Below are positions 7,638 to 38,153 of a DNA stretch of 56,635 bases, piece by piece. Both the position numbers and the translations under genes were made by a program. Every line of letters begins with the position of its first letter. Within the stretch, counting starts at the first letter, position 1. This DNA comes from a virus (taxonomy: Duplodnaviria > Caudoviricetes): positions 1-56,635 of the IMG/VR virus record IMGVR_UViG_3300034356_000821. The stretch is one strand, 5' to 3'. The notes under the pieces were generated by a model. The model worked only from the letters and a program-made list of their open reading frames with translations, did no database searches and was not told where the DNA came from.

Positions 7638-7979
7638 ATGGCTATGGATAACACAGCAGCTAAGGTTGCTAAATTGCGTGAAATGGCAAAGGACAAGAAC
7701 CTGCCACAGGACGTGCGTAACACCTATCTTGACGAAGCTGTGAAGCTGGAAGAGAAGGCGGCTATGAAGTCTGGTGTGAGGATGGCTAAGGGTGGTATGC
7801 CAATGGTTGAGAAGGCTGGCGTTAAAGTTCCAGCGTTTGCTGCTGACGGTGTTGGTAAGATGGCTAAGGGTGGCGCTGTTGTCGCCAAGGCTCCAACTAA
7901 AGACCTGCCAATGCGCGGTAGCCGTACAGCCACCAACATGGCGAAGGGTGGCTCTGCTATGAAGAAGGCTAAGAAGTAA
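7638..7979 (+). CDS. Basic protein with three MAKGG motifs
   Basis: MAKGG at 7782, 7860 and 7938; AAGGA RBS. Confidence 0.85.
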   Translation: MAMDNTAAKVAKLREMAKDKNLPQDVRNTYLDEAVKLEEKAAMKSGVRMAKGGMPMVEKAGVKVPAFAADGVGKMAKGGAVVAKAPTKDLPMRGSRTATNMAKGGSAMKKAKK

Positions 7980-7980
7980 G

Positions 7981-8418
7981 ATGGCTAAGAACAAGAACAT
8001 CGACGACGACACCCGCGCTCGTGCTCGGAAGTTTGTTGAAGAAAATAATAAAGGTGTTGACAGCGAAGGCTACGATTCACGAGAGTATCGGTCCGATCCT
8101 TATTCAGCAATGACTAAGAAGCAGCGTGATGCTCGTTTTGGCTATCCAGACGACTTCCCCCCTGCTGTTGTTTCAAAAGCTTTTGACGATGCCACTAAGA
8201 GTGTTGCTAAAGACAAACCTCGTGTTGTCAGCAAGAAAGAGTTGGAAGCGTCTGGTCTTAGCTTGCGTGACTTCCTCAACAAAGAGCGCGGCCTCACACG
8301 CCGTGAAGACAAACCTGACAGCAAAGTTGAAGCGGCTAAGAAGCAGTTGAAACTCAACAAAGGTGGCATGGCTAATTGTGGTGCATCTGTACCTGCTGCA
8401 CAGAAAGCTAAGAAGTAA
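7981..8418 (+). CDS. Charged protein with C-terminal LNKGG motif
   Basis: 145 aa; tightly packed; LNKGG at 8353. Confidence 0.8.
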   Translation: MAKNKNIDDDTRARARKFVEENNKGVDSEGYDSREYRSDPYSAMTKKQRDARFGYPDDFPPAVVSKAFDDATKSVAKDKPRVVSKKELEASGLSLRDFLNKERGLTRREDKPDSKVEAAKKQLKLNKGGMANCGASVPAAQKAKK

Positions 8419-8419
8419 T

Positions 8420-8602
8420 ATGGCTACCAAGTCTAAAGTGAACGCTGCTAACAACTACACCAAGCCTGAGTTGCGTAAGAAGATTGTGTCGCAAGTTAAG
8501 TCTGCTGCAACACAGGGCACTGGCGCTGGTGAATGGTCGGCTCGTAAGGCTCAGCTTGTTGCTAAGAAGTATAAGGCCGCTGGCGGTGGCTACAAAGACT
8601 GA
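8420..8602 (+). CDS. DUF5872-like protein, N-terminal half
   Basis: YTKPELR...WSARKAQ...YKAAGGGY. Confidence 0.75.
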   Translation: MATKSKVNAANNYTKPELRKKIVSQVKSAATQGTGAGEWSARKAQLVAKKYKAAGGGYKD

Positions 8603-8603
8603 T

Positions 8604-8837
8604 ATGAAAGCTTCACAGAAATCTCTCAAAGACTGGACAGACCAAGAGTGGACAACTAAGTCTGGAAAGCGTTCCTCTGATACGGGGGAGCGCTATCTAC
8701 CCAAAGCTGCCATCAAGAGTTTGACATCAGCAGAGTATGCTGCCACCACCAAAGCTAAGCGTGAAGGTAAAGCTGAAGGTAAACAATTTGTTGCTCAACC
8801 AAAGAGCATTGCTAAGAAGACGGCTAAGTACCGTTAA
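8604..8837 (+). CDS. DUF5872-like protein, C-terminal half
   Basis: SLKDWTDQEWTTKSG...ERYLPKAA. Confidence 0.75.
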   Translation: MKASQKSLKDWTDQEWTTKSGKRSSDTGERYLPKAAIKSLTSAEYAATTKAKREGKAEGKQFVAQPKSIAKKTAKYR

Positions 8838-8847
8838 AGGAAACATC

Positions 8848-9012
8848 ATGGCTACAAAGAAAGCGTTTAAGCCCTGCGAAGGCTGTCCCACTCCTGCTAA
8901 ATGCAAGGCTGCTGGTAAGTGTATGGCTAAAGAAGGCAAGGGTGGTAAGCCTGTTGTCGCCATCATGATTGGTGTTGGTAAGCCAATGAAGGCTAAGAAG
9001 AAAGCTACATAA
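8848..9012 (+). CDS. Lys-rich mini-protein with CxxCx5Cx5C motif
   Basis: AAGGAAACATC-ATG start; four Cys. Confidence 0.75.
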   Translation: MATKKAFKPCEGCPTPAKCKAAGKCMAKEGKGGKPVVAIMIGVGKPMKAKKKAT

Positions 9013-9524
9013 TGGAACAAAAAGAAATTGATGAAACCCGTGCTAGATTTAGTCTGCAAGGGGGAGCTAATACATTCAAAGACTCTGGTGCTCAAGGCGC
9101 TGGTGGTGGTGGACGTGTTGGAGTATCTAAAGAACTAGACTCTGGTGGTCGAGTATCTGCTGGTGTTAGTGGTATGGCATCGAAGGTTAAGGTTGATACT
9201 CCTGAAGGTGAAAAGACATTTAAGCAAAGCAGGGTCACTGGTGTTGACGCTTCTTATTCCAAAAATGATACCACCTATGGTGTTTCAGCGTCTAGGCAAC
9301 CTATGATGGACGGTAAGATGGATAAGAAACTTAACTTGTCCATTACAAAGTCGTTTGCTAAAGGTGGTGCTGTCACTAAGAAGAAGCAAACCACCAAAGT
9401 TGCTAAAGTGATGGGAGAGTTCAAAGAAGGCTCTCTGCACAGCGGCAAAGGCGGCAAAGTTGTGAAGAGTCCTAAGCAGGCTATAGCAATTGCTTTGTCT
9501 GAAGCTAAGAAGCCTAAGAAGTAA
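9012..9524 (+). CDS. Two-domain protein: beta-strand-rich N-domain, FAKGG, then DUF6496-like domain
   Basis: C-terminal KVMGEFKEGSLHSG...KQAIAIALSEA. Confidence 0.8.
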   Translation: MEQKEIDETRARFSLQGGANTFKDSGAQGAGGGGRVGVSKELDSGGRVSAGVSGMASKVKVDTPEGEKTFKQSRVTGVDASYSKNDTTYGVSASRQPMMDGKMDKKLNLSITKSFAKGGAVTKKKQTTKVAKVMGEFKEGSLHSGKGGKVVKSPKQAIAIALSEAKKPKK

Positions 9525-9874: not shown

Positions 9875-9876
9875 CA

Positions 9877-10251
9877 ATGTCTAAAAAAGAACTAACAGAA
9901 CAACAGAAACGATTCCTTGAGGTGTTGTTTGCTGAAGCCAATGGCAACATCAACCAAGCTATGAAGATGGCGGGGTTCTCTGAAGGCTATAGCCGCAGAC
10001 AACTCACCAACTCATTGAAGGAAGAAATCATTGAAGCTACACAGCTTTACATTGCTATGGCGGCTCCAAAGGCTGCGGTGGCTATGATCAATGCCATTGA
10101 CGATCCTACAGAGCTTGGCCTCAAAGAGAAGATGTCAGCCGCCAAAGACTTGCTTGACCGTGCTGGATTGGTGAAGACCGAGAAGGTGCAAGTAGAGAGC
10201 AACACAGGCGGTGTCATGATATTGCCTGCTAAGGAACGCGAAGAAGAATGA
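9877..10251 (+). CDS. Terminase small subunit (putative)
   Basis: LTEQQKRFL...AMKMAG HTH-like N-terminus; AAKDLLDRAG; position before TerL. Confidence 0.75.
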   Translation: MSKKELTEQQKRFLEVLFAEANGNINQAMKMAGFSEGYSRRQLTNSLKEEIIEATQLYIAMAAPKAAVAMINAIDDPTELGLKEKMSAAKDLLDRAGLVKTEKVQVESNTGGVMILPAKEREEE

Positions 10252-10727
10252 CAACAGATGTTGTTACAACAGACTATGATTTTGGTCTAGGTGTCTTCAT
10301 ACTGCCACAGCCCAAAGATGCTAAAGAGTATGTTAAGATACCACGATTGGGAAGAACTATACCTTTTGGTTATGTAGTTGATGAAGCCGATGATGGCTGG
10401 CTTGTTCCTGTAGCTTTAGAGATAGAGGCGCTGGAGAAAGCTAAGAAGCATCTGAAGCAATACAGCTTGAGGCAGGTATCGGCTTGGCTCACTACTGTGA
10501 CTGGTAGAGAAATAAGTCATGTTGGTTTAATGAAGAGGATTAAGAGTGAACAGTCCCAAAGACGTAAGTCCTCTACTTATCGAGAGCTTGCCGACAGGTA
10601 CGAAAAAGCCCTTAAGAAAGCGCAAGAGTACGAAAAAAGAACAGGCACCGGACAAGACAGCTTCTTCGGTAGTGATCGATTCGTCCAACTTAGCGCCACC
10701 TTCCCCGACAGAAGCGCCGATAGCTGA
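10248..10727 (+). CDS. DNA-binding protein (PFGY recombinase-like/HTH domain)
   Basis: RTIPFGY...YSLRQVSAWL...ISHVGL. Confidence 0.7.
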   Translation: MTTDVVTTDYDFGLGVFILPQPKDAKEYVKIPRLGRTIPFGYVVDEADDGWLVPVALEIEALEKAKKHLKQYSLRQVSAWLTTVTGREISHVGLMKRIKSEQSQRRKSSTYRELADRYEKALKKAQEYEKRTGTGQDSFFGSDRFVQLSATFPDRSADS

Positions 10728-12132: not shown

Positions 12133-12189
12133 AACATTTACTACTAAGAGGTTCAATGTTATACCTCTGCAACATCTTTACGGAAAACT

Positions 12190-14274: not shown

Positions 14275-14486
14275 TGATGGATAAGCCGTTTCTGCCAAAG
14301 CTTAAAGGTATGTTGAACAGTCCTCATTTGTGGGAAGCCTTTGTTGAGAAGCTTGATTATGATATTGAGCAACACCAACGCAAGCTGGAACAAACGACTG
14401 AGATGTCTGACGTGTTTAAAGCACAAGGTGCAATAGTTGCACTACGTCAGCTAAAGTATTTGAAGGAAGAAATCAATGCTAAATGA
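14274..14486 (+). CDS. Small portal-adjacent protein
   Basis: FKAQGAIVALRQL motif; overlapping starts and stops. Confidence 0.75.
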   Translation: MMDKPFLPKLKGMLNSPHLWEAFVEKLDYDIEQHQRKLEQTTEMSDVFKAQGAIVALRQLKYLKEEINAK

Positions 14487-15873
14487 AATGTATAAACTGT
14501 TTGCCGAGGGCGGTGTCATGCAAGAGGGTGGCACAGTCGATCCAGTTTCTGGTAACGATGTACCTCCCGGTGCTATGGCAGAAGAAGTTAGGGACGACAT
14601 TGACGCTAAACTTAGCGAAGGTGAGTTTGTCATTCCAGCCGATGTGGTGAGATACATTGGTTTGGAAAAGCTGATGATGATGCGTGACAAAGCTAAGGCT
14701 GGTCTTAAGCGTATGAACGATATTGGTCAGATGGGTAATGCTGAAGAAGTTCCTGATGCTGAAGCCCTGCATAGCGGTGGAGATGAAATGGATGATGAAT
14801 CTTTCTCGTCAGAGATTGATTCCATTATGGGTGAGGATGGGGGTCAAGAATATGCAGCAGGCGGTGATGTACGTAAGTATGCGCCGGGTGGTTATATTGG
14901 TGGCACTGCAAATCAAGAACTTTATAAAGATGCACCAATCCGTGGCTTTGAAATGGTAGAGATGGTGAATAAGGATGGTCAAGTCATTTACATCCCGTTC
15001 ATTAATGGCAGACCTCAGTTATCTATCCCTCAAGGATATACAGTTAAGTCGTCTGATATAACAACTACCACACCAACTACTCCTGCAACTGGTACAGGCA
15101 CAACCACTCCACAACCTACTGATGGTGGCGGCGCTGATGCTGGTGCTCCCGCTGCACCATCGTCACCGGGCTTTACTATTGGAGAAGACGGGGTTGCTAC
15201 TGCAAATACAACAAGCACCACTATTGGTTCTGTACTAGGTGCAGTTGTTGGTATGGTTACAGGATTATCTCCTGCCATGACATCACAGATTGGTAAGTCA
15301 GCGGTCAACCAATCAAACATTGCAAACACCCAAGCTGCGTTGTCTTTCAACACTGCTGTTGCTGATAACATGGCAATGGACAATTCACCAGCCGCTACCG
15401 CTGGTCCTACTGGTACAGGTGCGGCAGCAGCCTCTGCTGGTTCCGCTGCTGCCGCTGCTGCTACCGCTGTTGGTCATTCACCCGAAGCAGTTGCTGCTGC
15501 TGCACAGGCTGCTGCTACTGCTACAGTTGGTGGCGCTGGTCCCGCTGCTGCTGCCGCTGCTGCTGCCGATGCCGCTAACGCTGTCGCTGCCGATGCAGCC
15601 GATGCTGAAGGTGGTGGTCTTGGTACTGGTATCGGTATAGGTAGTGGTGGTACTGCCGCTGCTGATGGTGTAGGTGCTGATGGTATGGGTGTCGGTGCTG
15701 GTGTAGGTGGTGTAGGTGGTGAATCAGGTGTCAGCGCCGCTGGTGAAGCTGCTGGTGGCGCACCGTCAGGTGGTGGTGCTGACGGTGATGGTACTTATGC
15801 CAAAGGCGGCTTTGTATCCAAGAAGAAAACTACAACACCTAAATCAACATCGCTAGTATCTCGTCGTAAGTAA
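14476..15873 (+). CDS. LSEGEFV-domain protein with five tag motifs and an Ala/Gly-rich tail; candidate maturation or cargo factor
   Basis: DDIDAKLSEGEFVIPADVVRYIG; FAEGG, MQEGG, YAAGG, YAPGG, YAKGG. Confidence 0.8.
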   Translation: MLNEMYKLFAEGGVMQEGGTVDPVSGNDVPPGAMAEEVRDDIDAKLSEGEFVIPADVVRYIGLEKLMMMRDKAKAGLKRMNDIGQMGNAEEVPDAEALHSGGDEMDDESFSSEIDSIMGEDGGQEYAAGGDVRKYAPGGYIGGTANQELYKDAPIRGFEMVEMVNKDGQVIYIPFINGRPQLSIPQGYTVKSSDITTTTPTTPATGTGTTTPQPTDGGGADAGAPAAPSSPGFTIGEDGVATANTTSTTIGSVLGAVVGMVTGLSPAMTSQIGKSAVNQSNIANTQAALSFNTAVADNMAMDNSPAATAGPTGTGAAAASAGSAAAAAATAVGHSPEAVAAAAQAAATATVGGAGPAAAAAAAADAANAVAADAADAEGGGLGTGIGIGSGGTAAADGVGADGMGVGAGVGGVGGESGVSAAGEAAGGAPSGGGADGDGTYAKGGFVSKKKTTTPKSTSLVSRRK

Positions 15874-17154: not shown

Positions 17155-18225
17155 ATGGCTTTCCCATCAGCAGTCGGTAACGGCAATCTGCCCAATGGTA
17201 ACTTCAGTGCAGTTATCTATTCCAAGCAAGTACAACTTGCATTCCGTAAAGCTTCTACAGTTGAAGACATCACCAATAGCGATTACTTCGGTGAAATCGC
17301 TAACATGGGCGACAGCGTAAAAATCATCAAAGAACCTGAAGTGTCGGTGCAAGCCTACGCTCGTGGTACTCAGATCACAGCGCAAGACCTCGACGACGAA
17401 GACTTCACCTTGGTTGTTGATCAGGCTAACTACTACGCCTTCAAGATCGACGACATCGAAGCTGCTCACTCGCATGTGAACTTTATGCAGATGGCATCGG
17501 ACCGCGCTGCCTATCGTCTGCGTGACAACTACGACCAAGACGTGTTGGCGTATCTGGCTGGCTTCCAACAGTCTGCTAAGCATGCTGCTGGCGACACCAC
17601 TCGTACCACTGCTCCCGGCACCAAAGCTGTTGCCTCCGCTGGTTCTGACGAATTGTTGGCTACCATGAAACTGAGCCGTCCTAGCTTTGGCAACTTGACT
17701 AGCGCTGGTTCTACTGGTGACTCCATCCCATTGGCCCCACGCTTCCCCGGCGCTACTGCTGTTTCCACTACCACTGTGTCCCCTCTGACTGTGATTGCCC
17801 GTATGGGTCGTCTGTTGGATACACAGTTTGTGGACACTCAAGGTCGCTGGTTGGTCGTTGACCCCGTGTTCGTTGAGATGTTGAAGGACGAAGACAGCCG
17901 CCTGTTGAATGGTGACTTCGGTGGTTCTGGTCTGCAAAACGGTTTGATCTTGAACAACCTGCATGGCTTCCGTATCTATGTGTCGAACAACACTCCTAAG
18001 TTTGGTACTGGCCCCGGCACTGCTGGTGCTTCTGCTCAGGCTACCAACTTCGGTGTGATCGTTGCTGGTCATGACTCTGCTGTGGCAACTGCTCAACAGT
18101 TGACAAAGACTGAGACATATCGTGACCCCGATAGCTTCGCTGACATCGTGCGCGGTATGCACCTGTATGGTCGCAAAATCTTGCGTCCTGAAGGTATCGT
18201 GGTTGCACGTTACAACGTGGCCTGA
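17155..18225 (+). CDS. Major capsid protein
   Basis: GEIANMGDSVKI, GRWLVVDP, FADIVRGMHLYGRKILRPE; AGGAG RBS; strongly biased codon usage. Confidence 0.95.
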   Translation: MAFPSAVGNGNLPNGNFSAVIYSKQVQLAFRKASTVEDITNSDYFGEIANMGDSVKIIKEPEVSVQAYARGTQITAQDLDDEDFTLVVDQANYYAFKIDDIEAAHSHVNFMQMASDRAAYRLRDNYDQDVLAYLAGFQQSAKHAAGDTTRTTAPGTKAVASAGSDELLATMKLSRPSFGNLTSAGSTGDSIPLAPRFPGATAVSTTTVSPLTVIARMGRLLDTQFVDTQGRWLVVDPVFVEMLKDEDSRLLNGDFGGSGLQNGLILNNLHGFRIYVSNNTPKFGTGPGTAGASAQATNFGVIVAGHDSAVATAQQLTKTETYRDPDSFADIVRGMHLYGRKILRPEGIVVARYNVA

Positions 18226-20620: not shown

Positions 20621-20621
20621 T

Positions 20622-23354: not shown

Positions 23355-25463
23355 ATGGCAGGCTATACCCGTACAGACACCACTAACAACATTGCTGATG
23401 GCAACATTATTAATGCTACCGATCTCGACAATGAGTTCGATGGTATTCAAGCAGCATTCAGTAGCTCCACTGGTCACAACCATGATGGCACCACTGGTGA
23501 AGGCGCTCCCATTCTTGTGTTGGGTCCAACACAGGACGTGGTAGTTGGTGCTTCCACTGTCACTCCAAAGACCACCAACACTGTAGACATTGGCTCTAGC
23601 TCGTTGAAATACAAAGACCTGCACATGGCAGGCAATGCTCTTGTTGGTGGCACACTAGGTGTTACAGGTATTGCTACATTCACAGCACAGCCTGTGTTGT
23701 CTTCGTTGACAGCTTCTAGCGCTGTTGCCACTGACGCAAGTAAGGGTCTGGTCAGCGTGACCAACACGGGCACAGGCAACAACGTCCTTGCCACTTCTCC
23801 AACTTTGGTAACTCCTGCATTGGGCACACCAGCATCGGGTGTAGTGACAAACCTGACAGGTACAGCCTCTATCAACATCAACGGCACTGTGGGCGCTACA
23901 ACGGCCACCACAGGCGCATTCACTACGCTCGGCGCATCGTCCACGGCTACGCTAAACACGCTTGTTTCAAGCGGTGCAACACTGACAGGCGGGACAATCA
24001 ATGGGATGACTGTGGGCGCTACAACGGCCTCTACGGGTGCGTTCACATCCCTGACCGACTCTGGCAACCTAGCCTTCACAGGCACTGGCAACCGCATCAC
24101 TGGCGACTTTAGCAATGCGACTATTAACAACCGGGTAGCGTTCCAAGGGGTGAGTGGGTCAACTACGGATGTGGGTTCCATTCCTCCTTCTGCCGCATCA
24201 GCAGCAAGTTTTATTGCATTTAACTCAACAGACACTGGGAATGCTGGGTTTGCTCAACTGCGAATAGACGGTAGTGAAGCCAGAGTTGCGTCAAGTCGTA
24301 CGGGCACAGGCACATATGTACCGATGGTCTTCTACACCGGAGGCAGTGAGCGAGCTAGGATTGATACGTCTGGCAACGTGGGGATTGGGGTAAGCAGTAC
24401 AAACGGATTTTGGGGTTCATCTTCATTAAATGCAAGAACAGTTATTTCTCAGTCTTCAAGCGGGACAGCTATAGACACCGCTGATAAAGCGCTGGTATTG
24501 GTAAATTCAAATACAACTACCAGCAACACAACTTCACTTGTTTTGGGGACGGTAAATACAGGCGGTACAGGCATTGCTCAAGCGGCTGTTTATTCAATTA
24601 ACGGAACTCGTGGCGGAGCGTTTAATACTGGTCAACTTGGCTTTGCTTGCGCAAATTCTTCTGGCTCTCTTATTGAAGCTGTCCGCATCGACTCCTCCGG
24701 CAACGTAGGCATTGGGACGAGTTCGCCAAACACAAAGCTGGAAGTTTCTAACGGCGCGTTAATGGCTGGCACTTCAGGGCAAGTTCTTTTAGGGCGCGTC
24801 AGTTCTTCATTCCCCACCACAACGACCACTGGTTATTTTAGTCTTGATACAAACAACGTTGACGGCACTAACGGCGGTTTAACAATCAAAACGCTTGCGT
24901 CTAATGTTTTAACCGAACGCGCCCGTATCGACTCCAGCGGGAATTTGCTGGTGGGGGCTACGAGTCAAGTAAGTAATGAAAAACTTTCAGTAGTAACAGG
25001 AAATACTACTGGAATGGTTGTTAAAACCACTGGTGGGGCTACATATGTTCCTATTTACTCTTGGAACGCTACAACTACTGGTGACGGATATTTTGCAGGA
25101 TTCTTTACTGAAGCATCTCCAACATTAAGAGGCTCAATCTCATACAACCGTGCTGGTGGTCTTGTTGCGTACAACACTACATCAGACTACCGTGCCAAAG
25201 ACATTACTGGCTTGTTGACCAACAGCGGTGCATTGATTGACTCCGTGCCTGTTTACATGGGCAAGATGAAAGGCGCAACACAAGAGCGTCCAATGTTCAT
25301 TGCTCACGAAGTCCCTGCCTACGCACACACTGGCGAGAAAGACGCAGTGGATAAAGACGGTAAACCTGTTTACCAACAGATGGATGCTTCTGCCCTTGTG
25401 CCAGTGATGTGGGCTGAAATCCAATCCCTCCGCGCCCGTGTGCAAGCCCTCGAATCTAACTAA
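23355..25463 (+). CDS. Tail fibre with C-terminal S74 intramolecular chaperone
   Basis: N-terminal anchor GHNHDG; RIDxSGNVGIG repeats; TTSDYRAK and coiled-coil end. Confidence 0.9.
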   Translation: MAGYTRTDTTNNIADGNIINATDLDNEFDGIQAAFSSSTGHNHDGTTGEGAPILVLGPTQDVVVGASTVTPKTTNTVDIGSSSLKYKDLHMAGNALVGGTLGVTGIATFTAQPVLSSLTASSAVATDASKGLVSVTNTGTGNNVLATSPTLVTPALGTPASGVVTNLTGTASININGTVGATTATTGAFTTLGASSTATLNTLVSSGATLTGGTINGMTVGATTASTGAFTSLTDSGNLAFTGTGNRITGDFSNATINNRVAFQGVSGSTTDVGSIPPSAASAASFIAFNSTDTGNAGFAQLRIDGSEARVASSRTGTGTYVPMVFYTGGSERARIDTSGNVGIGVSSTNGFWGSSSLNARTVISQSSSGTAIDTADKALVLVNSNTTTSNTTSLVLGTVNTGGTGIAQAAVYSINGTRGGAFNTGQLGFACANSSGSLIEAVRIDSSGNVGIGTSSPNTKLEVSNGALMAGTSGQVLLGRVSSSFPTTTTTGYFSLDTNNVDGTNGGLTIKTLASNVLTERARIDSSGNLLVGATSQVSNEKLSVVTGNTTGMVVKTTGGATYVPIYSWNATTTGDGYFAGFFTEASPTLRGSISYNRAGGLVAYNTTSDYRAKDITGLLTNSGALIDSVPVYMGKMKGATQERPMFIAHEVPAYAHTGEKDAVDKDGKPVYQQMDASALVPVMWAEIQSLRARVQALESN

Positions 25464-27253: not shown

Positions 27254-27702
27254 ATATAATCACCATTGTTATAGCCATTGCCGCCTTCTTAGGTGGCTTT
27301 GCTGTTCAGGGATGGAGAATGAAATCAACCATTGCTGAAATTGAAGCAACTAATGTTGCTGCTGTAGTGGCTGCAACAACCGCAGTGGCTGAAGAGGCTG
27401 CTCGTTTACAAGGACAAAAAGATGATGCTCTCAAAGCTGCTCAACAACAAATTCGTAAGAACACTCTTGCTGCCGATGCTGCTCGTATTGAGCTTCACAG
27501 GGTGCGGGTCGAAGCAAACCGTGCCACCACCGCCATTGTTACAGCTACCTGCCCCGCCGTTAGAGACTACGCCACAACCTCAACGTCCGTATTCGGAGAG
27601 TGTACAGTTGCTCTTGAAGAAATGGCAAGACTCGCTGACGGACACGCAGTTGATGCAAAAGCCTTGAGAGATGCTTGGCCTACAACCAAGGAAACAAAAT
27701 GA
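27250..27702 (+). CDS. Rz: i-spanin
   Basis: N-terminal TM with VQGWR; Ala-rich coiled coil; two Cys. Confidence 0.85.
   Translation: MNIITIVIAIAAFLGGFAVQGWRMKSTIAEIEATNVAAVVAATTAVAEEAARLQGQKDDALKAAQQQIRKNTLAADAARIELHRVRVEANRATTAIVTATCPAVRDYATTSTSVFGECTVALEEMARLADGHAVDAKALRDAWPTTKETK
27422..27667 (+). CDS. Rz1: o-spanin lipoprotein embedded in Rz (+1 frame)
   Basis: FTGC lipobox; Pro-rich mature part; fully nested in Rz. Confidence 0.85.
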   Translation: MMLSKLLNNKFVRTLLLPMLLVLSFTGCGSKQTVPPPPLLQLPAPPLETTPQPQRPYSESVQLLLKKWQDSLTDTQLMQKP

Positions 27703-28169
27703 CAATGCTAACTAACAACTTCTCTTTGCACGAGATGATTAAGAGTGAGACAGCTTCGCGTAGAGATATGGACAATACACCGCATAGCGATGAAGTTGTG
27801 CAGAACTTGACAGTGTTGTGTGAACAAGTGTTGCAGCCTTTGCGTGATGCATATGGTGTTGGTATTAAAGTTAATAGTGGCTATCGTAGCCCTGACGTGA
27901 ATGCTGCTGTCGGTGGTAGTCGCACTAGCGATCACTGCAAAGGACAAGCTGCTGACATTGAGATTCCCGGTGTAGCTAATGCAGACCTTGCACAGTACAT
28001 CGCAGACAACTTTGATTTCACACAACTGATATTGGAGTTTTATACACAGGGTATTCCTGATAGTGGTTGGGTACATGTTTCATATGACAGTAACAATCTC
28101 AAACGACAAGTGATGACAGCGGTTCGCCAAAATGGTAGAACTGTTTATCTCCAAGGTTTGGTAGCTTAA
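27699..28169 (+). CDS. Endolysin, peptidase M15A
   Basis: SGYRS..VN..VGG...SDHCKGQAADI, WVHVS. Confidence 0.92.
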   Translation: MTMLTNNFSLHEMIKSETASRRDMDNTPHSDEVVQNLTVLCEQVLQPLRDAYGVGIKVNSGYRSPDVNAAVGGSRTSDHCKGQAADIEIPGVANADLAQYIADNFDFTQLILEFYTQGIPDSGWVHVSYDSNNLKRQVMTAVRQNGRTVYLQGLVA

Positions 28170-28180: not shown

Positions 28181-30817
28181 ATGGCTGAAAACTTTACAGC
28201 AAAACAAAAAGAAATCGTAGCACGTAAGATGGGCTATGACGGTCCTATGCAGGGCTTTGATCAATTCCTTAATTCATCTCCGTCATTAGGCATGCGATAT
28301 TCATCCATCACTTCTAAGTTTGCTGAGCGCATGGCAAAGGGTGGTGTTGTAAAGAAGTTTAATGTTGGTGGCTCTGTCATGTCGCCTGAACAACTTCAAA
28401 GTATTAACGCATTTTTAGCAACCAATCCTTCCCCTCAAGAGTTGGCTGCTGCACAACAACAATATGGTGTGACTGAAGTAGATTTGGCCGCTGCTAGGCA
28501 GCTTAGCGATTCTAGTCAACTAGCTGCTAATCGTGCAGCCGTTCGTGCTGACATGGCTGTAACAGGTGAAGAGTTTCGTATTGCCAACCCCGGTGGTGAT
28601 GTGACAATTCAAGGCACACAACGACCTGCAATGTCTGCCATTCCACAGTCTGAAATTGATGCTGCACGGGCACGCCTGACACCAGAGCAGCAACAGTTTA
28701 TTGATTGGAAGATGAAACAGATTGATCCAATTCAGCAGGGAACAATTGGCGACCAGTTTGCCCGTAGTGGGGTCAACCCATATCTGGATGCAGCAGGAGC
28801 GCAGACACAGATTGACCGTGCCACAAGTCGTGAGGCGGCGTTTCAGCAGGCTGGTGTTACACCAGAAACTAACCTACGCCCGTGGACAACGGCATCAACT
28901 ACAACTCCAGCAGCCAACACAACAACAGCATCAAGAACAGTTGTTGGCGGTGGCAATACAACTACTACACCTTCTCCATTTGTGATTGGCGGTGGCAATC
29001 CAACACCTTCAACAACAGTTGGCCCCGGCCCTATAACACCTTCACAGGTTGGTAATACTCCCGGCTTGGGTGCAGGTGGTATCGGTGTTAACGTTGGCAC
29101 CACAGGCACTACAGGTACAACAGGCACAACAGGCACCACAGGCACCACAGGCACCACAGGCACCACAGGTACAACACCCACCACAGTCACTGCGCCCGAT
29201 GGACCAGTTATGGGTGCTACACCAACCTACACAGCAGCACAAACTGCCACTACTGGTTTGGGAGCACAGGCTACTACTATTGCTCCCATTACTACAGCCA
29301 CTGCTGCTGCTCCTGTTGAAGCGGCAGGTGTCACTGCTCCTGCTCCAATTGTTGCACCAACTGTCACTGCTGCACAATCTGCTCCCGGTGTTAGTCAAGC
29401 GGTGTCGGGTGTAACTGCTGAGCAAGGTACGTTGTCACAACAAGCGCAGGTAACAGCGGCTCAACAAGACCCACGTACAACTGCTGTTTCTACTCTCACT
29501 GCTGCACAGGGTGAAGCTGCTCAGGTTGCTGCTCCTGCTGTTCGTACAGCGCAGGCTGGTGAGATGGTGTCTGGTTCAGCCGTTGACATGGGTAGGGTTG
29601 ATACAGAACTTGCAAAGACACAGGCTGCTCAGGGTGTTGTCACTGAAGAGATGACAGTGCAGGGTCAGTTGAACAAACTCACTAAAGACTTTGACGCTGG
29701 CAATCCACCACCTTGGGCTGCTGCGTCCATGAGGGCGGCTACAGCACAGCTTGCTGCCCGTGGCCTTGGTGCTAGTAGCCTAGCTGGTCAAGCCATCATT
29801 CAAGCCACGCTAGAGGCTGCTACACCCATTGCTGCTGCTGACGCTAAAGTGTTTGAGACAATGGGGTTGCAGAACTTGTCCAACCGTCAGCAAATTGCTG
29901 TGCTTGTTGGTCAACAACGTGCTCAGTTTCTTAGTCAAGAGTTTGATCAAAACTTTCAGTCTCGTGTTATCAATGCTGCAAAGATTAGTGACATTGCTAA
30001 CAAGAACTTTGATGCTACAGTTACTATTGCTTTGGAGAACGCTAGGCTTGCCAACACAATGAACCTTGCCAATCTTTCGTCAAAGAACGCATTGATCTTG
30101 GAGGAGGCTGCTGCCATGTCTCGCTTGGAGACACAGAACCTGAACAACCGTCAACAGGCTGCTGTTCAGAATGCTCAGAACTTCTTACAGATTGATATGA
30201 AGAACTTGGAGAATCGTCAACAGACATCAATCTTCAAGGCACAGGCCATTGTTAATTCGTTAGTGAGTGATGCTGGTTTTGAGAATGCTACACGAGCAAC
30301 CAATGCCAGCAATAAACTAGAAGCTGATAAAATCTCTGCAACATTGGCACTCACGGCTCAACAGTTTTCAGCGTCTGAGAAGAACAAGCTTGCTGTTGCC
30401 AACATGGATGCAGCCAATGAGCTTATTAAATTTAATGCTCAAGAAGCTAATGACAGAGCAGACTTCAATAATAAAATGTCTGCGGAGATTAACGTAGCTA
30501 ATGCTAGAATATTAGCTGAAGTGTCTACAGCCAACACCGCTGCTGTCAACGCAGCCAATGCTCTTAATGCTAAGAACGCCACAGACTTGACAGCAGCACA
30601 GTATGCACAGCAGAGTCAGACCTATCGTGACTTGCTTGAGATGTCTTGGAAGACTGGTGAAAGTGGTAAAGATCGTATTGTTAATTTGGCAATTGCTTCT
30701 ATCGCAAGAGATGTTCAGAATATTAAAAGTGATAGTGAAAACAGTTCGGCTTGGGGTAAGTTATTCATTGAAGGTGTAAAGAACTGGGACACCCTGAAAA
30801 ACATCATTAGTGGATAA
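28181..30817 (+). CDS. Internal virion / ejection protein
   Basis: MAKGG and FNVGG near the N-terminus; Thr/Pro linker; Asn/Gln/Ala-rich helical repeats. Confidence 0.8.
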   Translation: MAENFTAKQKEIVARKMGYDGPMQGFDQFLNSSPSLGMRYSSITSKFAERMAKGGVVKKFNVGGSVMSPEQLQSINAFLATNPSPQELAAAQQQYGVTEVDLAAARQLSDSSQLAANRAAVRADMAVTGEEFRIANPGGDVTIQGTQRPAMSAIPQSEIDAARARLTPEQQQFIDWKMKQIDPIQQGTIGDQFARSGVNPYLDAAGAQTQIDRATSREAAFQQAGVTPETNLRPWTTASTTTPAANTTTASRTVVGGGNTTTTPSPFVIGGGNPTPSTTVGPGPITPSQVGNTPGLGAGGIGVNVGTTGTTGTTGTTGTTGTTGTTGTTGTTPTTVTAPDGPVMGATPTYTAAQTATTGLGAQATTIAPITTATAAAPVEAAGVTAPAPIVAPTVTAAQSAPGVSQAVSGVTAEQGTLSQQAQVTAAQQDPRTTAVSTLTAAQGEAAQVAAPAVRTAQAGEMVSGSAVDMGRVDTELAKTQAAQGVVTEEMTVQGQLNKLTKDFDAGNPPPWAAASMRAATAQLAARGLGASSLAGQAIIQATLEAATPIAAADAKVFETMGLQNLSNRQQIAVLVGQQRAQFLSQEFDQNFQSRVINAAKISDIANKNFDATVTIALENARLANTMNLANLSSKNALILEEAAAMSRLETQNLNNRQQAAVQNAQNFLQIDMKNLENRQQTSIFKAQAIVNSLVSDAGFENATRATNASNKLEADKISATLALTAQQFSASEKNKLAVANMDAANELIKFNAQEANDRADFNNKMSAEINVANARILAEVSTANTAAVNAANALNAKNATDLTAAQYAQQSQTYRDLLEMSWKTGESGKDRIVNLAIASIARDVQNIKSDSENSSAWGKLFIEGVKNWDTLKNIISG
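29096..29176 (+). repeat. 9-nt tandem repeat x9 encoding (Gly-Thr-Thr)9
   Basis: GGCACCACA-type units counted directly. Confidence 0.9.
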
Positions 30818-32918: not shown

Positions 32919-35900
32919 ATGGCGTTTGGTATTAACGACAAAGAAGTTTCTACAGGCTTTGGGGCCAATGATAAAGTTGTGAGTGGTGGTTTTGGTGCAA
33001 ACGATGCTGTTGTTTCTAAGCCAACACCACAGTCTGAAGTAGACCTGACTAAGCCTGCCTTTGCTGCACCACGTCAACGTGCTACAGAGTTAAAGAAGGC
33101 TCAAGCTGTTGCCATCTCAGGTCGAGATGAAAAGAATGAAGGTCTTACTTGGAACGACCTCACAACCAATCCTAGCCTTCAAGACATTCAGAAACAGTTT
33201 CTGGAGATTCGTACAGGCAAGAAAGCTGAAGGTATTAGCGGCGTAGAGTTGTCAAATCAATTCATGTCTAGTGCTCGTGCTGATGAATGGAACACCTTCA
33301 GTAACATTGCATATTTGAATCAACTTCGTAACTCTCCGTTGCCTGACAAAGAGAAGTTGGCATTGGGTAAGCTTGTGTTTGAACGAACAAAGAGTGCATT
33401 GGAAGAAGGTGGTCAACCCGGTGCTCGTCCATATGTTGATGCAGTGACATCAGCCTTCACAGACTTGTCCAACTATGTTGGTCTTGGTGTTGGTGCTGGT
33501 TTGAAGAAGGGTGTTGCTAAAGAAGTAACCAAAGCTGCCACTCGCGCAGCATTGGGTGAGGTGGCTGAGACAGGTGTCAAAGCTAAGCTTGCTCAAGCTA
33601 TGACCGTTACACCCCTGAAGGCTGGTCTTGGTGTTGTAGGCACCGAAGCTGTCATTGGTGGTGGTCAAGCTGCTGTCGAACAGAAGGCGCAGGTTGCTAC
33701 ATCAAAGGTATTGGCTGAACAACGTCCCGATCTTGGTGTTGCTCCTAAAGAGTTTGACGACACTGCTGTTGCTGTTGCTGCATTGTTCTCTGCTGCCTTC
33801 GGTGGTGTTGAGGCCGTTGGTATTATGAAAGCTAAAGGCGGTAAGTCTGGTGCTGAACAACTCAATGATGTTCTCAAAGACAAGATTAAAACTTCAACAG
33901 ACCCTAACGCACCACCCACAAAGGTTGAACGTGTACTGACCGATCCTGTTGCACAAAATATGGACAAGGTTGTTGAAGAGTTCATGAATATTCAAGGTCG
34001 TCAGGTTTTGAATGAGGTCAATCCAGCAACAGCATTAACTGATGCAAAGATTCAGAAAGACTTGTCTGCTCGTGCTGTACGTGTAGCGTTGCACGTCATT
34101 GAACAAGACCCCACATTCCGTCTGCGTCCTAACCAGAAGACAAGCACAGCCATTGCTGAAGTGTTCTCTCAACTGGATACCATTGACGATGCGTTGCTTG
34201 AACAGGCCATTCGCAAGGAAGGGTTGACTCCTGATCAATTCGCTGCTGCTAACAAGCTGACAGTTACAGAGGCTGCTCAGGTGATGCAGCAATACTCTGC
34301 TGCTTCAAAGGTGTTGAAGCGCATGTCAGAGATTGATCCAGAATTCAAGAAGCAAGTTGATGCTTTGTTTGAAAAGCCTGATGAATATGTATCAGCACTT
34401 GGTCGCTTGGGTCAGGGTATTCAGACACTTGAGCGTGAATCAAAGGCTTGGATTGTTTCAGGCATTGGCACCACTGTCCGTAACGTCATTGGCACATCTA
34501 TTGGTCTGACATACAACTCTGCTGCTTCATTGATTGAAGGCGCTTTGTACACTGTCGGTAGAACACTGGATGGTGCTGCCAGCGGTAAGCGTATTGAAAC
34601 TGCAAAGAACAGTTTGGGCGACACCATGCGTGATGCATTCGGTGTGTATGGCTACATGGCTAAGGGTGGTTTGTCTACAGAGGTCACTGACACTTTGTTG
34701 CAACACAACCCCGCCATTCGTAACAACATATTGAGCGCAACACAGGAAAGTTCCACTAAGGAAATCTCTAAAGCTGCACAGGTCTTCAACAGCTTGAACG
34801 TAGCACAGGATGCTTTCTTCCGTAAAGCCATATTTAACGCTTCGGTTGAGAAGCATATGCGCCGTGCTGGTCTTGATATGTATGAGGTCATTGCTGAAGG
34901 TAAGACAATTCCCGCATCGGTCTTGAAAGAAGCTGCTGATGAAACGTTGAAGGCTACGTTCTCCTACACACCAAAGGCACAGAAGAAGGGTATTCAAACC
35001 TTTGAGGCTGGTGCTGAAGCTGCTGGTAACTTGTTCGTTAAAGCTGCTGAGTTCCCCGGTGGTAGCTTGCTTGCTACATTCCCACGCTTCATGTCGAACG
35101 CCATTGCTTTCCAATATCGATACAGCGTGTTCGGTGCTATATCGGGTGCTGAAGACTTGGCTCAGGGTGCATTAATGAAGGCTGCTGGTTCTTCTGGTGG
35201 TGAAGCTCTCATCCGTAAAGGACAACAGAACATTGCCAAGGGTGTTGTTGGTACTGCTGCATTGGCTGCTGCCTATGACTACCGCATGAACAACCAAGAC
35301 ACTGAATGGTACAACATGAAGAACGACGATGGTTCTACTGTTGACACTCGTGCCATCTTCCCATTGGGTCCAACACTGGCTGTTGCTGACTTCATGGCTA
35401 AGCGTAAACTTGGTCTTGAACCAAAGACTGCCGAGGCATTGGAAGCCGTTGTTGGTATGAAGATGCCTGCTGGCACACAGAACCAATTCCTTGATCAAGT
35501 GTTTGCTGCGTTCTCTTCTGAGAAAGAAGCTGATAAGTTGGAAGTGGCTGTTGGTAAAGTTCTTGGTGACTTCACTGCACGTTTTGCTCAACCGTTTGTG
35601 TTTAAGAGCGCTTACGAATTCTTAGATTTGTTCCGTGAGGAAGGCGCTATTCAGCGTGACCCTAATGTGTTGACTGCTGAAGGTGGTGGTGGTCGCTTGG
35701 TTGAAGCTGCTGTCAATCGTGTGCAGTCTAAGTTGCCTGTGCTGAAAGAAGATTTGCCTGAAGCAATCCCTCGTTTGCGTGAAGGACCAGTATATAAAGA
35801 AGGTGAATTCTTTTATAGCTTGGTTGGTGTTAGAGAAACTCCCAATAAGACTCCTGCTGAGAAAGAGATTGTTCGTCTTGGCATTGACCCTTTCAAACTG

Positions 35901-38153
35901 TATGGCCCTTCATCTGGTGACAGAATGTATGATCGTGCCTTTGTTGAGAACGCCAACCCTATGGTGGTTGCTGCCATTGATAGGACAATGGCTAACAACA
36001 GATACAAGGCTTTGTCACCCACTGAACAGAAGTTGGCATTGACCAATGTTGTTCGTGACGTTACAGGTATTGCTCGTGACAAGACAGACGGTAAGTTCAT
36101 GTCTGAAGACCTGACTCGTGTTAAGAAGATGCGCTTTGACAAACTGTCTGCTGATCAACGCAAGGTTATTAACGAACGTTATGCCAAAGACAACAAAGGT
36201 GTAACTCTCGAAGAAGCTAAAGACTACCGCGCTGTCGATAAGTATGAAGCTATGTTGGGTAACTTAGCCTTTGCCAAAGGTGGTCTTGCTGCCAAGATTG
36301 TAGGTAAGAAGGTTGCTGGTGAAGCTGTTGATTCTGTGACAAGCAAGCTTAAAAGCCTGACACCAACACCAACGCCTGCTGCTGACAACGCAGCAATCGA
36401 TGCCATCATCAACAAAGAACTTGGTGCTCCATCACCCGCCATCGATCAAACAGCTAACATGTTGATGGGTAAGAAGCCTGTGCTTCCTAAAACCACAGCA
36501 AAACAAACGCCTTCGCTTCCTGAAGAGCCAGCAACACCTGCACCAACCACACCAGAAGCGCCTGTGTTGAGCCAAACAGATGATGCCCTGCCTACCCTAC
36601 CTGCACAGACAATGGAGGCTCCTACGCTCTCTAAAGCCTTTGCTGATGAAGACTATGTCAAGGGTGAAGAGGCTATGCTTGAGTCGTACACACCTGCTCA
36701 GCTTAAGAGTTGGAAGATAGCCAACCCTGAAGACTACGAAAACACTCTTCATAGCTTTACTGGTCAAGCTAAAGGACTGAAATATTCTGAAATGCCACCA
36801 CAGCCTTTTGCTAAGAAGACTGATGAGGCTGCTGAGTCTTTGGTTGATGAAGTTGAATATGATATGGATGGTAATCCTGTTAGTGTTGGTGGTGTTGCTG
36901 TTAAGAAAGCTACACCAGTTGCTGATGAGTATGGTGTTGACCTTAAGTACTTGTCGGGTGATGCCAACTCTGTAGTTAAGAAAACCAGTGTTGCTCAACG
37001 TAACGCTGCTGTGTCTGCCATCAAAGAGACACGTGAAGACAACTTCTTCAAGCTGCGTAACAATGATAAGTTTGCTTCAGTAGATGATGATGTGTTGGGT
37101 GTGGTGTTGGGTGACTATCGCTACTCACGTGGTGCTGAACTCAACCCTAAAGACCCTGACATGCTTGCTGACGCTGTAAAGATGGCTGGTCAATATCAGA
37201 AACGTCTTGATGTTTTGCGTGAGAAGTATAAAGATGTACCACCTGTGAAGCTGTTCCACGGTCAAGGTACAACCTCTGCCATTGAACCAATTAAGAAGTC
37301 AGGCTTCACGGACCCGTCTAAGCGTGATGAGTTCTTCCATTCTGAAATGATGGTGGGTGCTCCATCGTTTACCAAAGACTTGAACCTTGGCTTTCGAGGT
37401 ACGCCATTTGGTGGAACAAGACCAGAGAACTATGTTGTCACAGAGATTCCTTATGCTGATTATGTGTTCAACAAAATCAATATGTCACCTGAGAATTATG
37501 ACAAGAAAGATATGAACACCATTCTTCGTGCCGTCACTGGCGCACCCGGTGTTGTTCGTCCTGTTGGCTTACCTCGTGCTGGCTTCTTAGAGACTGAAGA
37601 CATGATGCTGGAGGCTGAGAAGCTTCGCGTCAAAGGTAGAGATGCTAAGTTGCGTAGTGGTGAAAAGGATGTTGCTCAGGTGCTGGACACTGGTGGTAAA
37701 GGTCTGAGTCGAGCAACGATGAAGGGTGAAGAAGAAGTTGTGTCAGAGTATATGAAGCTTGCTCGTACCACTCCAGACCCTAAAGAGAAGATGAAGCTGG
37801 CATACATGTCCTACACTGGCATCAAAGACTTGATGAACAATTATCTGGATATGGCTACAGCAACGTCTACGAAGTCTGGTCTTGGTCAACAATATCAAGC
37901 TGCCATTAACAACTTTGCAGACTACTCAGGTATTCAGCGACAGATGCGTGAAGTCGCTGACATCTTGGATGCTGGTGGAGCTAAGCAGAAAGCACAGAAC
38001 CTGTATGAACTTACAGACAAGTTGAAGAAGTTTCAACAGTCTGAACCTGCAATCTCCACAGCGGTTGATGAAAGCAAACGAATTAAACCACTGGACGAGG
38101 TGAGAAAGTTTGTACCAAAGCTGGCAAAGGGTGGTCTAGCAAGTCGTCGGTAA
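32919..38153 (+). CDS. Large ejection protein (1744 aa) with C-terminal ADP-ribosyltransferase-like module
   Basis: Last gene of the virion arm; FGxND x3 at the N-terminus; LFHG...SFT...ETE; three AKGG motifs. Confidence 0.8.
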   Translation: MAFGINDKEVSTGFGANDKVVSGGFGANDAVVSKPTPQSEVDLTKPAFAAPRQRATELKKAQAVAISGRDEKNEGLTWNDLTTNPSLQDIQKQFLEIRTGKKAEGISGVELSNQFMSSARADEWNTFSNIAYLNQLRNSPLPDKEKLALGKLVFERTKSALEEGGQPGARPYVDAVTSAFTDLSNYVGLGVGAGLKKGVAKEVTKAATRAALGEVAETGVKAKLAQAMTVTPLKAGLGVVGTEAVIGGGQAAVEQKAQVATSKVLAEQRPDLGVAPKEFDDTAVAVAALFSAAFGGVEAVGIMKAKGGKSGAEQLNDVLKDKIKTSTDPNAPPTKVERVLTDPVAQNMDKVVEEFMNIQGRQVLNEVNPATALTDAKIQKDLSARAVRVALHVIEQDPTFRLRPNQKTSTAIAEVFSQLDTIDDALLEQAIRKEGLTPDQFAAANKLTVTEAAQVMQQYSAASKVLKRMSEIDPEFKKQVDALFEKPDEYVSALGRLGQGIQTLERESKAWIVSGIGTTVRNVIGTSIGLTYNSAASLIEGALYTVGRTLDGAASGKRIETAKNSLGDTMRDAFGVYGYMAKGGLSTEVTDTLLQHNPAIRNNILSATQESSTKEISKAAQVFNSLNVAQDAFFRKAIFNASVEKHMRRAGLDMYEVIAEGKTIPASVLKEAADETLKATFSYTPKAQKKGIQTFEAGAEAAGNLFVKAAEFPGGSLLATFPRFMSNAIAFQYRYSVFGAISGAEDLAQGALMKAAGSSGGEALIRKGQQNIAKGVVGTAALAAAYDYRMNNQDTEWYNMKNDDGSTVDTRAIFPLGPTLAVADFMAKRKLGLEPKTAEALEAVVGMKMPAGTQNQFLDQVFAAFSSEKEADKLEVAVGKVLGDFTARFAQPFVFKSAYEFLDLFREEGAIQRDPNVLTAEGGGGRLVEAAVNRVQSKLPVLKEDLPEAIPRLREGPVYKEGEFFYSLVGVRETPNKTPAEKEIVRLGIDPFKLYGPSSGDRMYDRAFVENANPMVVAAIDRTMANNRYKALSPTEQKLALTNVVRDVTGIARDKTDGKFMSEDLTRVKKMRFDKLSADQRKVINERYAKDNKGVTLEEAKDYRAVDKYEAMLGNLAFAKGGLAAKIVGKKVAGEAVDSVTSKLKSLTPTPTPAADNAAIDAIINKELGAPSPAIDQTANMLMGKKPVLPKTTAKQTPSLPEEPATPAPTTPEAPVLSQTDDALPTLPAQTMEAPTLSKAFADEDYVKGEEAMLESYTPAQLKSWKIANPEDYENTLHSFTGQAKGLKYSEMPPQPFAKKTDEAAESLVDEVEYDMDGNPVSVGGVAVKKATPVADEYGVDLKYLSGDANSVVKKTSVAQRNAAVSAIKETREDNFFKLRNNDKFASVDDDVLGVVLGDYRYSRGAELNPKDPDMLADAVKMAGQYQKRLDVLREKYKDVPPVKLFHGQGTTSAIEPIKKSGFTDPSKRDEFFHSEMMVGAPSFTKDLNLGFRGTPFGGTRPENYVVTEIPYADYVFNKINMSPENYDKKDMNTILRAVTGAPGVVRPVGLPRAGFLETEDMMLEAEKLRVKGRDAKLRSGEKDVAQVLDTGGKGLSRATMKGEEEVVSEYMKLARTTPDPKEKMKLAYMSYTGIKDLMNNYLDMATATSTKSGLGQQYQAAINNFADYSGIQRQMREVADILDAGGAKQKAQNLYELTDKLKKFQQSEPAISTAVDESKRIKPLDEVRKFVPKLAKGGLASRR

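Follow-up and report, generated by a model that had tools for sequence, protein, structure and literature searches.

In bacteriophage T4 a short N-terminal peptide, the capsid targeting sequence, brings injected internal proteins and Alt (an ADP-ribosyltransferase being among them) into the prohead; this signal attaches to the scaffolding core, and the prohead protease cleaves it off. Adenovirus carries protease sites of the form (M/I/L)XGG-X on the precursors of its basic core proteins, including small precursors with several sites. The targeting peptides of encapsulin cargo are C-terminal, with hydrophobic anchors around a Gly hinge and a terminal Lys/Arg that meets an acidic patch of the HK97-fold shell (PMC7925596), and fusions of MuF with effector domains have been described (PMC5512222). 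The way in which podophages choose the proteins to be packed and injected is known in few model phages only. Here we describe a short peptide tag with the core pattern [MFYL][ANQ]xGG on late proteins encoded in the viral record IMGVR_UViG_3300034356_000821. The whole stretch of DNA that was analysed, 56,635 bases, is referred to as the window. Judged by its genes, the window phage is an HMO-2011-type podophage. Its coat protein (17155-18225) shares 69-78% identity with the coat proteins of Puniceispirillum phage HMO-2011, of the Roseobacter CRP phages and of a freshwater podophage that has not been cultured. The tag occurs in six late open reading frames (ORFs):

7638-7979 (+): 113-amino acid (aa) protein, net charge +13, made up almost entirely of tags
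7981-8418 (+): 145-aa protein, charge +10, with LNKGGMANCGAS near its C-terminus (nucleotide (nt) 8353)
9012-9524 (+): 170-aa protein, charge +16, with FAKGGAVTKKK at aa 115 (nt 9354)
14476-15873 (+): post-portal carrier protein, 465 aa
28181-30817 (+): 878-aa protein, first of the ejection-protein cluster
32919-38153 (+): 1744-aa protein, last of the ejection-protein cluster

An earlier inspection of the window from its letters and translations (the sequence-only reading) had reported fifteen copies in these six proteins, which it called otherwise unrelated. Each of the fifteen was found at its position, in frame on the + strand. A count over all six frames gave 17 copies, the remaining two being located at 46619, in an early gene for a putative single-stranded-DNA-binding protein (so named in the sequence-only reading), and out of frame at 24944. 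The ORF list of the window comprises 77 entries, 37 of them late (10,331 aa) and 40 early (7,264 aa). The pattern is enriched in the late set, with 15 copies compared to 2.18±1.49 in shuffled sequences; the early set has one copy where 0.88 was expected. Shuffling the late ORFs as whole proteins or in blocks of 20 or 40 residues gave about 2.2 copies, and 0 of 2000 shuffles per scheme reached 15 (maxima 10, 8 and 8). The search pattern was fitted to the window genome after the fact. An all-against-all blastp of the six proteins returned no pair at E<0.1, and the best tag-related match covered 16 aa at E=0.17, in agreement with their being unrelated. The tandem pairs at 9-aa spacing proved real, and the copies do lie at termini and junctions adjoining basic tails. 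The statement that codons differ between copies stood only in part, since the five MAKGG copies differ by just 0-2 synonymous bases and those at 7782 and 34656 are identical 15-mers. What survives of the original interpretation is a selected, protein-level, modular signal on late head and ejection-cluster proteins; the suggestion of ligation found no support.

The observation is thus confirmed, and it extends beyond the pentapeptide, which forms the centre of a linear signal of 11 residues, approximately K-Φ-A-K-G-G-Φ-(V/A)-(S/T)-(K/R)-(K/R), where Φ is hydrophobic. Copies pooled from the window and six relatives have a K ahead of the hydrophobic residue and, after GG, a hydrophobic residue, then V/A, then K/R; the preference for V or A at the second position after GG, noted earlier for the window, holds in the pooled set (of 57 copies, 26 have V there and 10 have A). 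Lone tags are basic, with K at position 3 in 45% and 1.58 K/R within the next 8 residues. Copies that form part of a module in the post-portal protein (see below) are acidic, with E/D at position 3 in 52%. In the six relatives the pattern sits in the same kinds of protein as in the window. Counts there were 9, 7, 4, 5, 5 and 10 compared to 2.0-2.7 expected, and 1, 4, 94, 26, 62 and 1 of 500 shuffles, respectively, reached the observed count, such that three relatives are convincing singly and three are not. We also collected 80 IMG/VR loci around portal genes 67-84% identical to that of the window. Their long + strand ORFs contain 220 copies, or 7.24 per 10,000 aa, compared to 0.14-0.59 in the other frame and strand classes. 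Because these 80 loci are all close relatives, they replicate the observation but do not separate the candidate receptors discussed below.

The 1744-aa protein has tags at aa 580 (MAKGG, not basic), aa 1118 (FAKGGLAAKIVGKK) and its C-terminus (KLAKGGLASRR), and the latter two bracket an appended segment:

36273-38150 (+): C-terminal cassette, aa 1119-1744 of the 1744-aa protein

The nearest Atlas clusters of the cassette are ART-PolyVal (score 0.80, a lead only). The cassette has 82 homologues, the most distant about 31% identical, and K-[LF]-A-K-G-G-[LF]-[AV]-[ST]-[RK]-[RK] is the ending of 79 of them; GG is followed by 5 residues in 63 homologues, by 6 in 13 and by 4 in 3. Over tag positions −1 to +8 the column entropy amounts to 0.0-1.07 bits, compared to 1.9-3.4 bits in the preceding 29 residues, and the low-entropy positions include several that the search pattern does not fix (K−1, K+2, L+5, A+6, S+7 and R+8). 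There are homologues 484-784 aa long; some of these begin with Met (on 40-62 kb contigs) and retain the tag. In three complete relatives the last protein is 1128-1218 aa long (versus 1744 in the window), so that it ends close to where the window protein has its FAKGG, aa 1118; just one of the three (MW202701) ends in a tag. Since the appended cassette has its own terminal tag and the tag at aa 1118 is near the end of the relatives' proteins, the tag behaves as a unit that is portable with its cargo, at least in the cassette family. These alignments support the view that it is kept with the cargo cassette, whether fused or stand-alone.

In the 878-aa protein the tag is tandem (MAKGGVVKKFNVGG, aa 51-64, nt 28331 and 28358) and follows a conserved N-terminal segment. 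Among the matches listed, a tag is present near residue 50 in 120 of 120 homologues, and a second Φ-x-x-GG follows 9-11 residues on in 90 of the 120. Judged by domain content, variable domains are carried by this family as well. Additional Pfam domains (PF10975, PF17782, PF27070, PF01381, PF03020 and PF20432) were seen in members P0348, P0366, P0378, P0396, P0399, P0421 and P0441.

The post-portal carrier protein combines several copies with a conserved acidic core:

14533-14751 (+): GEFV core, aa 20-92 of the 465-aa protein, net charge about −18 over aa 20-125

Its N-terminal module consists of the acidic copies FAEGG and MQEGG (aa 9 and 15), the GEFV core, and YAAGG and YAPGG (aa 126 and 135). 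After the module come a beta mini-domain at aa 158-190, a region rich in Ala and Gly and, at the C-terminus, the basic tag YAKGGFVSKKK...SRRK (aa 441-465). The core reads ...GN[DE]VPPG..EEVRDDI.A.LSEGEFV.PADVVRY.G..., and 19 positions are invariant in 146 aligned sequences (G26, V29, P30, G32, E37, V38, D40, S47, G49, E50, A55, D56, V57, R59, G62, R70, A73, M80 and G84). The module was found in 2,882 cluster representatives, at the N-terminus or inside proteins of up to 1,571 aa, and at least two members of the post-portal family carry a PF18760 ART-PolyVal domain. A C-terminal ΦAKGG[FL]V.K[KR]K...GLASR(R)K is conserved in 127 of the 260 post-portal-family proteins collected. In 150 family representatives we counted 70 motifs outside the module compared to 24±4.6 in shuffles, and 48 of the 70 are within 30 aa of the C-terminus. 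The acidic version of the tag flanks the core in these 150 representatives, which fits the earlier idea that the protein with the LSEGEFV sequence is functionally tied to the tag, and in the small number of lineages compared, tag and core are present or absent jointly.

The post-portal protein was modelled in two AlphaFold2 runs, from 61 and 146 sequences, which placed the tag segments below 50-60 in predicted local distance difference test (pLDDT) score, consistent with flexibility, and gave pLDDT values of 70-81 for the core and about 80-94 for the beta mini-domain. Neither run gave the GEFV core a compact fold, and when the second model was compared with the PDB by Foldseek, 0 matches were returned at E<=0.001. 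Pfam assigned 0 families to the 465-aa protein at E<=0.01. PDB sequence searches with the 465-, 878- and 1744-aa proteins gave chance-level matches only (nanobodies on a GG-rich stretch at E>=9e-4, others at E>=0.17). A complex prediction that paired the three-tag protein of 113 aa with the GEFV core (aa 20-125) had an ipSAE of 0.00 in both runs; made without controls, it counts neither way on binding.

The small basic proteins are encoded near the start of the late genes. In the 113-aa protein MAKGG recurs with an exact 26-aa period at aa 49, 75 and 101 (nt 7782, 7860 and 7938), the last copy 8 aa from the C-terminus; the protein matched no Pfam or PHROG family. Relatives of the window phage encode similar small multi-tag proteins, and the NKGG[YM]A.CGAS ending of the 145-aa protein recurs in their small proteins. 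In the 170-aa protein the tag is directly upstream of, and outside, a DUF6496 domain (PF20106, aa 124-167, E=2.5e-10, 41 bits versus a curated cut-off of 24). One more ORF may belong to this set:

8737-9012 (+): possible fourth small basic protein, charge +21 as listed, with the variant MAKEGKGGKPVV; the true start is probably internal

The variant MAKEGKGGKPVV was not scored as a tag under the strict pattern. Endings of the type NKGG[YM]A.CGAS, a tag followed by conserved Cys-Gly-Ala-Ser, were seen in the window (8353-8418) and at L004 3046, L005 1774, L006 2790, L020 3107, L036 3350 and L038 1767, and other small proteins end in ...KKGC or KKGKC. Tag-only proteins of 76 aa (L027 2661-2799) and 73 aa (L028 515-653) have four tags each, and three of the four recur every 10 aa as GYAAGGMAKK repeats.

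The sequence-only reading had located the novelty in the system rather than in the pentapeptide. The motif turns out not to be peculiar to the HMO-2011-type group: many tape-measure proteins contain a module of which it makes up one arm. The GEFV module and the tape-measure C-terminal module have the collinear layout Φ-A-x-G-G, second GG, [H/S]-x-x-E-Φ-V-Φ, helix, Φ-A-x-G-G-Φ-V, and aa 9-140 of the window's post-portal protein show arm, core and second arm in this order. In lambda gpH the module comprises residues 733-782 (FATGG733...HRGEFVF752-758...YATGG778), and in the tape-measure protein of Gordonia phage SteveFrench it reads YATGG...LSRGEHVITAAEV...FARGG. T5 pb2 (1128-1150) has AEGGMM...GEHGTEVVTP, and AEGGMMYPGVSYQMGEHGTEVVTP shows the motif-plus-core arrangement. 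The full module is present in tape-measure proteins of Arthrobacter, Microbacterium and Vibrio phages (Maja, Cassita and Pel), and a module without the second arm in Pseudomonas and Acinetobacter phages (Kopi and LPAB65). A 60-residue lambda segment matched 1,227 phage records; among the best 40 of the 1,227 the annotated features are nearly all tape-measure proteins, and one match, in an Arthrobacter phage, is 69% identical. Pfam has no family over the module region of lambda gpH.

Statistical support for joining the two module subtypes is modest, and the case is based mainly on the collinear layout. A tblastn search with the GEFV core matched Gordonia phage tape-measure proteins at 42% identity over 66 aa (E=4e-3), hhalign against gpH 700-820 gave E=7.5e-4 with a probability of only 25%, and the PHROG tape-measure family phrog_5448 matched at E=2.6e-4. 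The subtypes also differ. The His of the tape-measure HxxE is an invariant Ser in the post-portal family, which has about 20 residues inserted before the core; the post-portal module is in a head protein and the tape-measure module in a tail protein; and extra basic copies of the arm on other proteins occur only in HMO-2011-type phages.

Two of these tape-measure proteins are known to be cut. T5 pb2 is cut after R1127, as determined by mass spectrometry (LC-ESI-TOF-MS), and the fragment pb2C has been proposed to digest peptidoglycan (PMC10038345). In the sequence this cut directly precedes AEGG, and therefore the released pb2C starts with the module. In lambda, gpH is cleaved within a Gly-rich stretch, which yields gpH* (about residues 1-710) plus a ~14-kDa fragment, the catalyst and site not being established, and residues about 690-817 have no resolved structure (PMC12617516). 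We computed products of 77.7 and 14.6 kDa for a cut after residue 710, 78.5 and 13.8 kDa after 721, and 80.1 and 12.2 kDa after 737. Gel-based sizes therefore cannot decide among these sites; they lean slightly towards a cut upstream of the motif. Near the C-terminus, aa 842-853 of lambda gpH (L012; MRDGGLFSGGGR) and the end of the Vibrio phage Pel protein (L015; LMPGGLIWRAQNGR) consist of a hydrophobic residue, GG, a hydrophobic residue and a terminal Arg, similar to the layout of the tag. Residues 818-849 of gpH are the part seen bound to gpI by cryo-electron microscopy.

The genes of the window are arranged as follows:

+ strand, start of the late genes: small genes, small terminase, large terminase, portal (SU10-type), a 70-aa ORF, the 465-aa post-portal protein
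+ strand, after the post-portal protein: a 287-aa probable scaffold, P22-like coat, adaptor, nozzle and fibres, M15 endolysin
+ strand, end of the late genes: cluster of 878-, 66-, 163-, 465- and 1744-aa proteins, where podophages place their ejection proteins
− strand, early genes: replication and nucleotide-metabolism enzymes, integrase, ADP-ribosylglycohydrolase

The post-portal 465-aa protein has relatives in 14 phage records, every one from the HMO-2011-type group. A Pfam scan of 60 of the 77 ORFs (the remaining 17 are mostly short) detected no protease family for tag processing; the only peptidase family among those scanned was the Peptidase_M15_3 endolysin (27675-28169), and there was a cell-wall hydrolase besides. 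The ADP-ribosylglycohydrolase among the early genes (54203-55051 (−), PF03747, E=8e-44) and the ART-PolyVal-like cassette may form a writer-eraser pair. Three small ORFs at 7071-7379, 8484-8837 and 10248-10727 bear function-less labels and are conserved in HMO-2011-type relatives (46-82% identity), with no counterpart in the portion of phage phiM6 that was compared; that at 7071-7379 weakly matches a PHROG family annotated 'minor head protein and DNA pilot' (E=1e-3).

We tentatively favor the view that the tag is a portable docking peptide, for encapsulation or tethering, of internal, ejected proteins. Gene positions suggest that the post-portal carrier, the first and last ejection-cluster proteins and three or four small basic proteins would reside in the capsid and then be ejected. 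The tag, lying in flexible termini or junctions, would use two hydrophobic anchors about a Gly-Gly hinge, together with its basic tail, to bind a conserved acidic site during procapsid assembly. Docking would co-assemble the carriers, along with any appended effector cassette, into the head, and the small multi-tag proteins could act as multivalent cross-linkers. The receptor could be the P22-like coat (at its inner face), the portal or the scaffold, or else the post-portal protein's GEFV module, which is strongly acidic; the charges (module −18 for aa 20-125, portal −19, coat −8, scaffold −9) are complementary to the basic lone tags. We prefer this reading because of the strict distance to a free C-terminus and the conserved residues after GG, and because of the portability of the tag, its flexible segments, the pairing of a basic tail with acidic head components and an encapsulin-like layout. 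The return of much the same ending in the unrelated post-portal and cassette families, and the tandem tag in all listed homologues of the 878-aa protein, point the same way.

Several observations weigh against docking in the capsid. The same Φ-A-x-G-G-Φ-V element is present in tape-measure proteins of the tail, so a receptor in the capsid interior cannot explain every copy. The basic tails would be equally able to bind DNA, the mapped T5 cleavage falls at the edge of the motif, and in the AlphaFold2 models, which treat a single chain, the C-terminal tail and flanking copies are not docked onto the module. Furthermore, phiM6 has no GG tag despite a coat protein 56% and a portal 52% identical to those of the window, and it lacks both tag and GEFV core. 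Between its terminase and portal genes phiM6 (L007) encodes three small basic proteins (3671-3952, 3949-4296 and 4569-4913) with the common C-terminal ending DF[PK]FFKH..K, and blastp similarity among them is limited to the last 16-41 aa. The absence of the GG tag from a phage whose small proteins share an ending of their own suggests lineage-specific tags for a common task, a point in favor of docking.

The main and serious rival to docking is processing, which we regard as possible although doubtful. Polyproteins or precursors would be cleaved either at Φ|A-x-G-G or beside it, or else behind GG, while the virion assembles or once ejection has taken place, freeing cargo domains and short basic peptides, and the GE-Φ-V core would be an enzyme or a cut-directing element. 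The T5 pb2 cut after R1127, directly before motif plus core (PMC10038345), fits this model, as does the lambda gpH cut in a Gly-rich region with the module just downstream (PMC12617516). Cuts at the tags would split the 1744-aa protein into 580, 538 and 617 aa, the small multi-tag proteins resemble precursors of basic peptides, and polyvalent phage proteins are thought to be processed (PMC5512222). Yet a cut at the terminal tags would free only 4-6 residues, and those are conserved. The 60 scanned ORFs hold no peptidase family save the M15 endolysin and the cell-wall hydrolase. The core His of tape-measure proteins is replaced by an invariant Ser in the post-portal family, so no shared catalytic centre is evident, and the N-terminal module was modelled without a compact core fold and with no PDB match at E<=0.001. 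Moreover, the T5 cut follows an Arg rather than a hydrophobic residue, and the lambda sizes fit better a cut 12-23 residues upstream of the motif. A broader proposal, which we consider less probable still, is that Φ-A-x-G-G arms and the [H/S]xxE-Φ-V core form an ancient, undescribed module of proteins that leave the virion through the tail, namely siphophage tape-measure and podophage internal proteins. It would mark the start of a released C-terminal fragment, as in T5 pb2C, and would place the lambda gpH cut at residues 733-737 or immediately upstream of them. One arm would have been copied onto many proteins in HMO-2011-type phages, so that a single reader, the acidic post-portal core, gathers or processes all injected cargo. 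Across the readings, the simplest unifying idea would be that the arm packs against the GE-Φ-V core.

The other explanations each cover part of the data. An improbable one is a DNA hook, in which the basic tag would bind the minor groove or backbone and so tie internal proteins to the packaged genome or neutralise charge. In layout it would resemble the three AT-hooks of HMGA. Small proteins of +10 to +21 charge with 1-4 regularly spaced tags (26-aa period in the window, 10-aa period in L027) and the K/R clusters after lone tags agree with it; the conserved positions, however, are hydrophobic residues and Gly rather than basic ones, with K at position 3 in just 45%. Copies inside the module have acidic character (52% with E/D at position 3), the tape-measure copies compared have no basic tail (FATGGFTG and YATGGYVG in lambda), and a DNA hook would not be expected to keep an exact spacing to a free C-terminus. 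Just as improbable, or slightly more so, is a role confined to the host envelope after ejection, be it self-association or insertion of a conduit or binding of peptidoglycan. Podophage internal and siphophage tape-measure proteins, which have the module in common, are both extruded through the tail. In Maja and a Gordonia phage the module directly precedes a hydrolase-like, His-rich HxH-type sequence (a by-eye reading; Pfam gave 0 families for the Gordonia stretch), and the peptidoglycan digestion proposed for T5 pb2C (PMC10038345) is in line with such a role. The tags nevertheless lack a hydrophobic stretch, and the basic tail and free-C-terminus constraint are left unexplained. Finally, Gly/Ala/Lys-rich low-complexity regions might yield the pattern by composition and chance, without selection. 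The post hoc definition of the pattern and the three of six relatives that are not singly significant (94, 26 and 62 of 500 shuffles) are what one would cite for this account, which is nevertheless highly improbable given that 0 of 2000 shuffles, 20-residue blocks included, reach 15, that the coding-frame density across the 80 loci is at least 12-fold that of other frames, and that three families show position-specific conservation. The docking, processing, DNA-hook and post-ejection readings are not mutually exclusive.

We rejected internal translation starts at M-type tags, as the upstream Shine-Dalgarno sequence is not consistent. Acylation of the tag lysine was likewise rejected: the HlyC-family acyltransferase of HTVC115P has no window counterpart, the 163-aa protein of the window matching a different HTVC115P gene, and the Lys at tag position 3 is not conserved. 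That acyltransferase (L008 25861-26310; RTX-toxin-type lysine acyltransferase HlyC, PF02794, E=1e-15) is encoded within the ejection-protein cluster of this pelagiphage. In Rhizobium phage RHph_TM3_14A (L011 1972-2454) a GNAT acyltransferase, which also has no counterpart in the window, adjoins the module-bearing protein.

If the docking view is correct, it would be possible to read from sequence which proteins are injected by a phage group that is abundant in marine and fresh waters, new effector cassettes such as the ART-like one would become detectable, and foreign proteins could be loaded into capsids. The tape-measure link would supply a candidate for the lambda gpH cleavage region and a conserved element outside all family databases. 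Neither the tag nor the tape-measure module was found described in the literature searched, within whose reach most subscription-journal papers do not fall.

Compared with the systems described at the outset, the tag is closest to each in a different respect. Its likeness to the T4 signal is limited in that the window tags are mostly C-terminal or internal and that the scanned ORFs include no prohead protease family. With the adenovirus sites it shares a hydrophobic residue ahead of Gly-Gly and an occurrence on internal proteins that are basic; in 15 of 15 window copies, however, P5 is the hydrophobic position and P4 is A, N or Q, and the Pfam scan of 60 of the 77 ORFs found no CE-clan or other protease family apart from the M15 endolysin. 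The post-portal protein resembles MuF and SPP1 gp7 in being encoded directly after the portal and in joining a conserved module to variable effector domains, and differs in having no Phage_Mu_F match and the GEFV module in place of MuF. The phage tag differs from encapsulin targeting peptides in that their GSL-type consensus (DGSLGIGSLKG, LTVGSLRR) is not matched by K-L-A-K-G-G-L-A-S-R-R, only the general layout being alike. In addition, phage tags can be tandem or close to an N-terminus, some proteins are made of tags only, the tagged genes are scattered rather than beside the shell gene, and homologous copies are present in tail proteins. A C-terminal position holds for the cassette homologues, 79 of 82 of which end 4-6 residues after GG, whereas the 878-aa family has its tag near residue 50. 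By analogy, both kinds of peptide may be described as short, mostly C-terminal and portable between cargo proteins, with anchors, a Gly hinge and terminal Lys/Arg, and the window coat protein, from its family, is expected to share the HK97 fold of the encapsulin shell. New here, as far as these comparisons go, are the acidic copies that flank a GE-Φ-V core and the apparent presence of the same module in tape-measure proteins.

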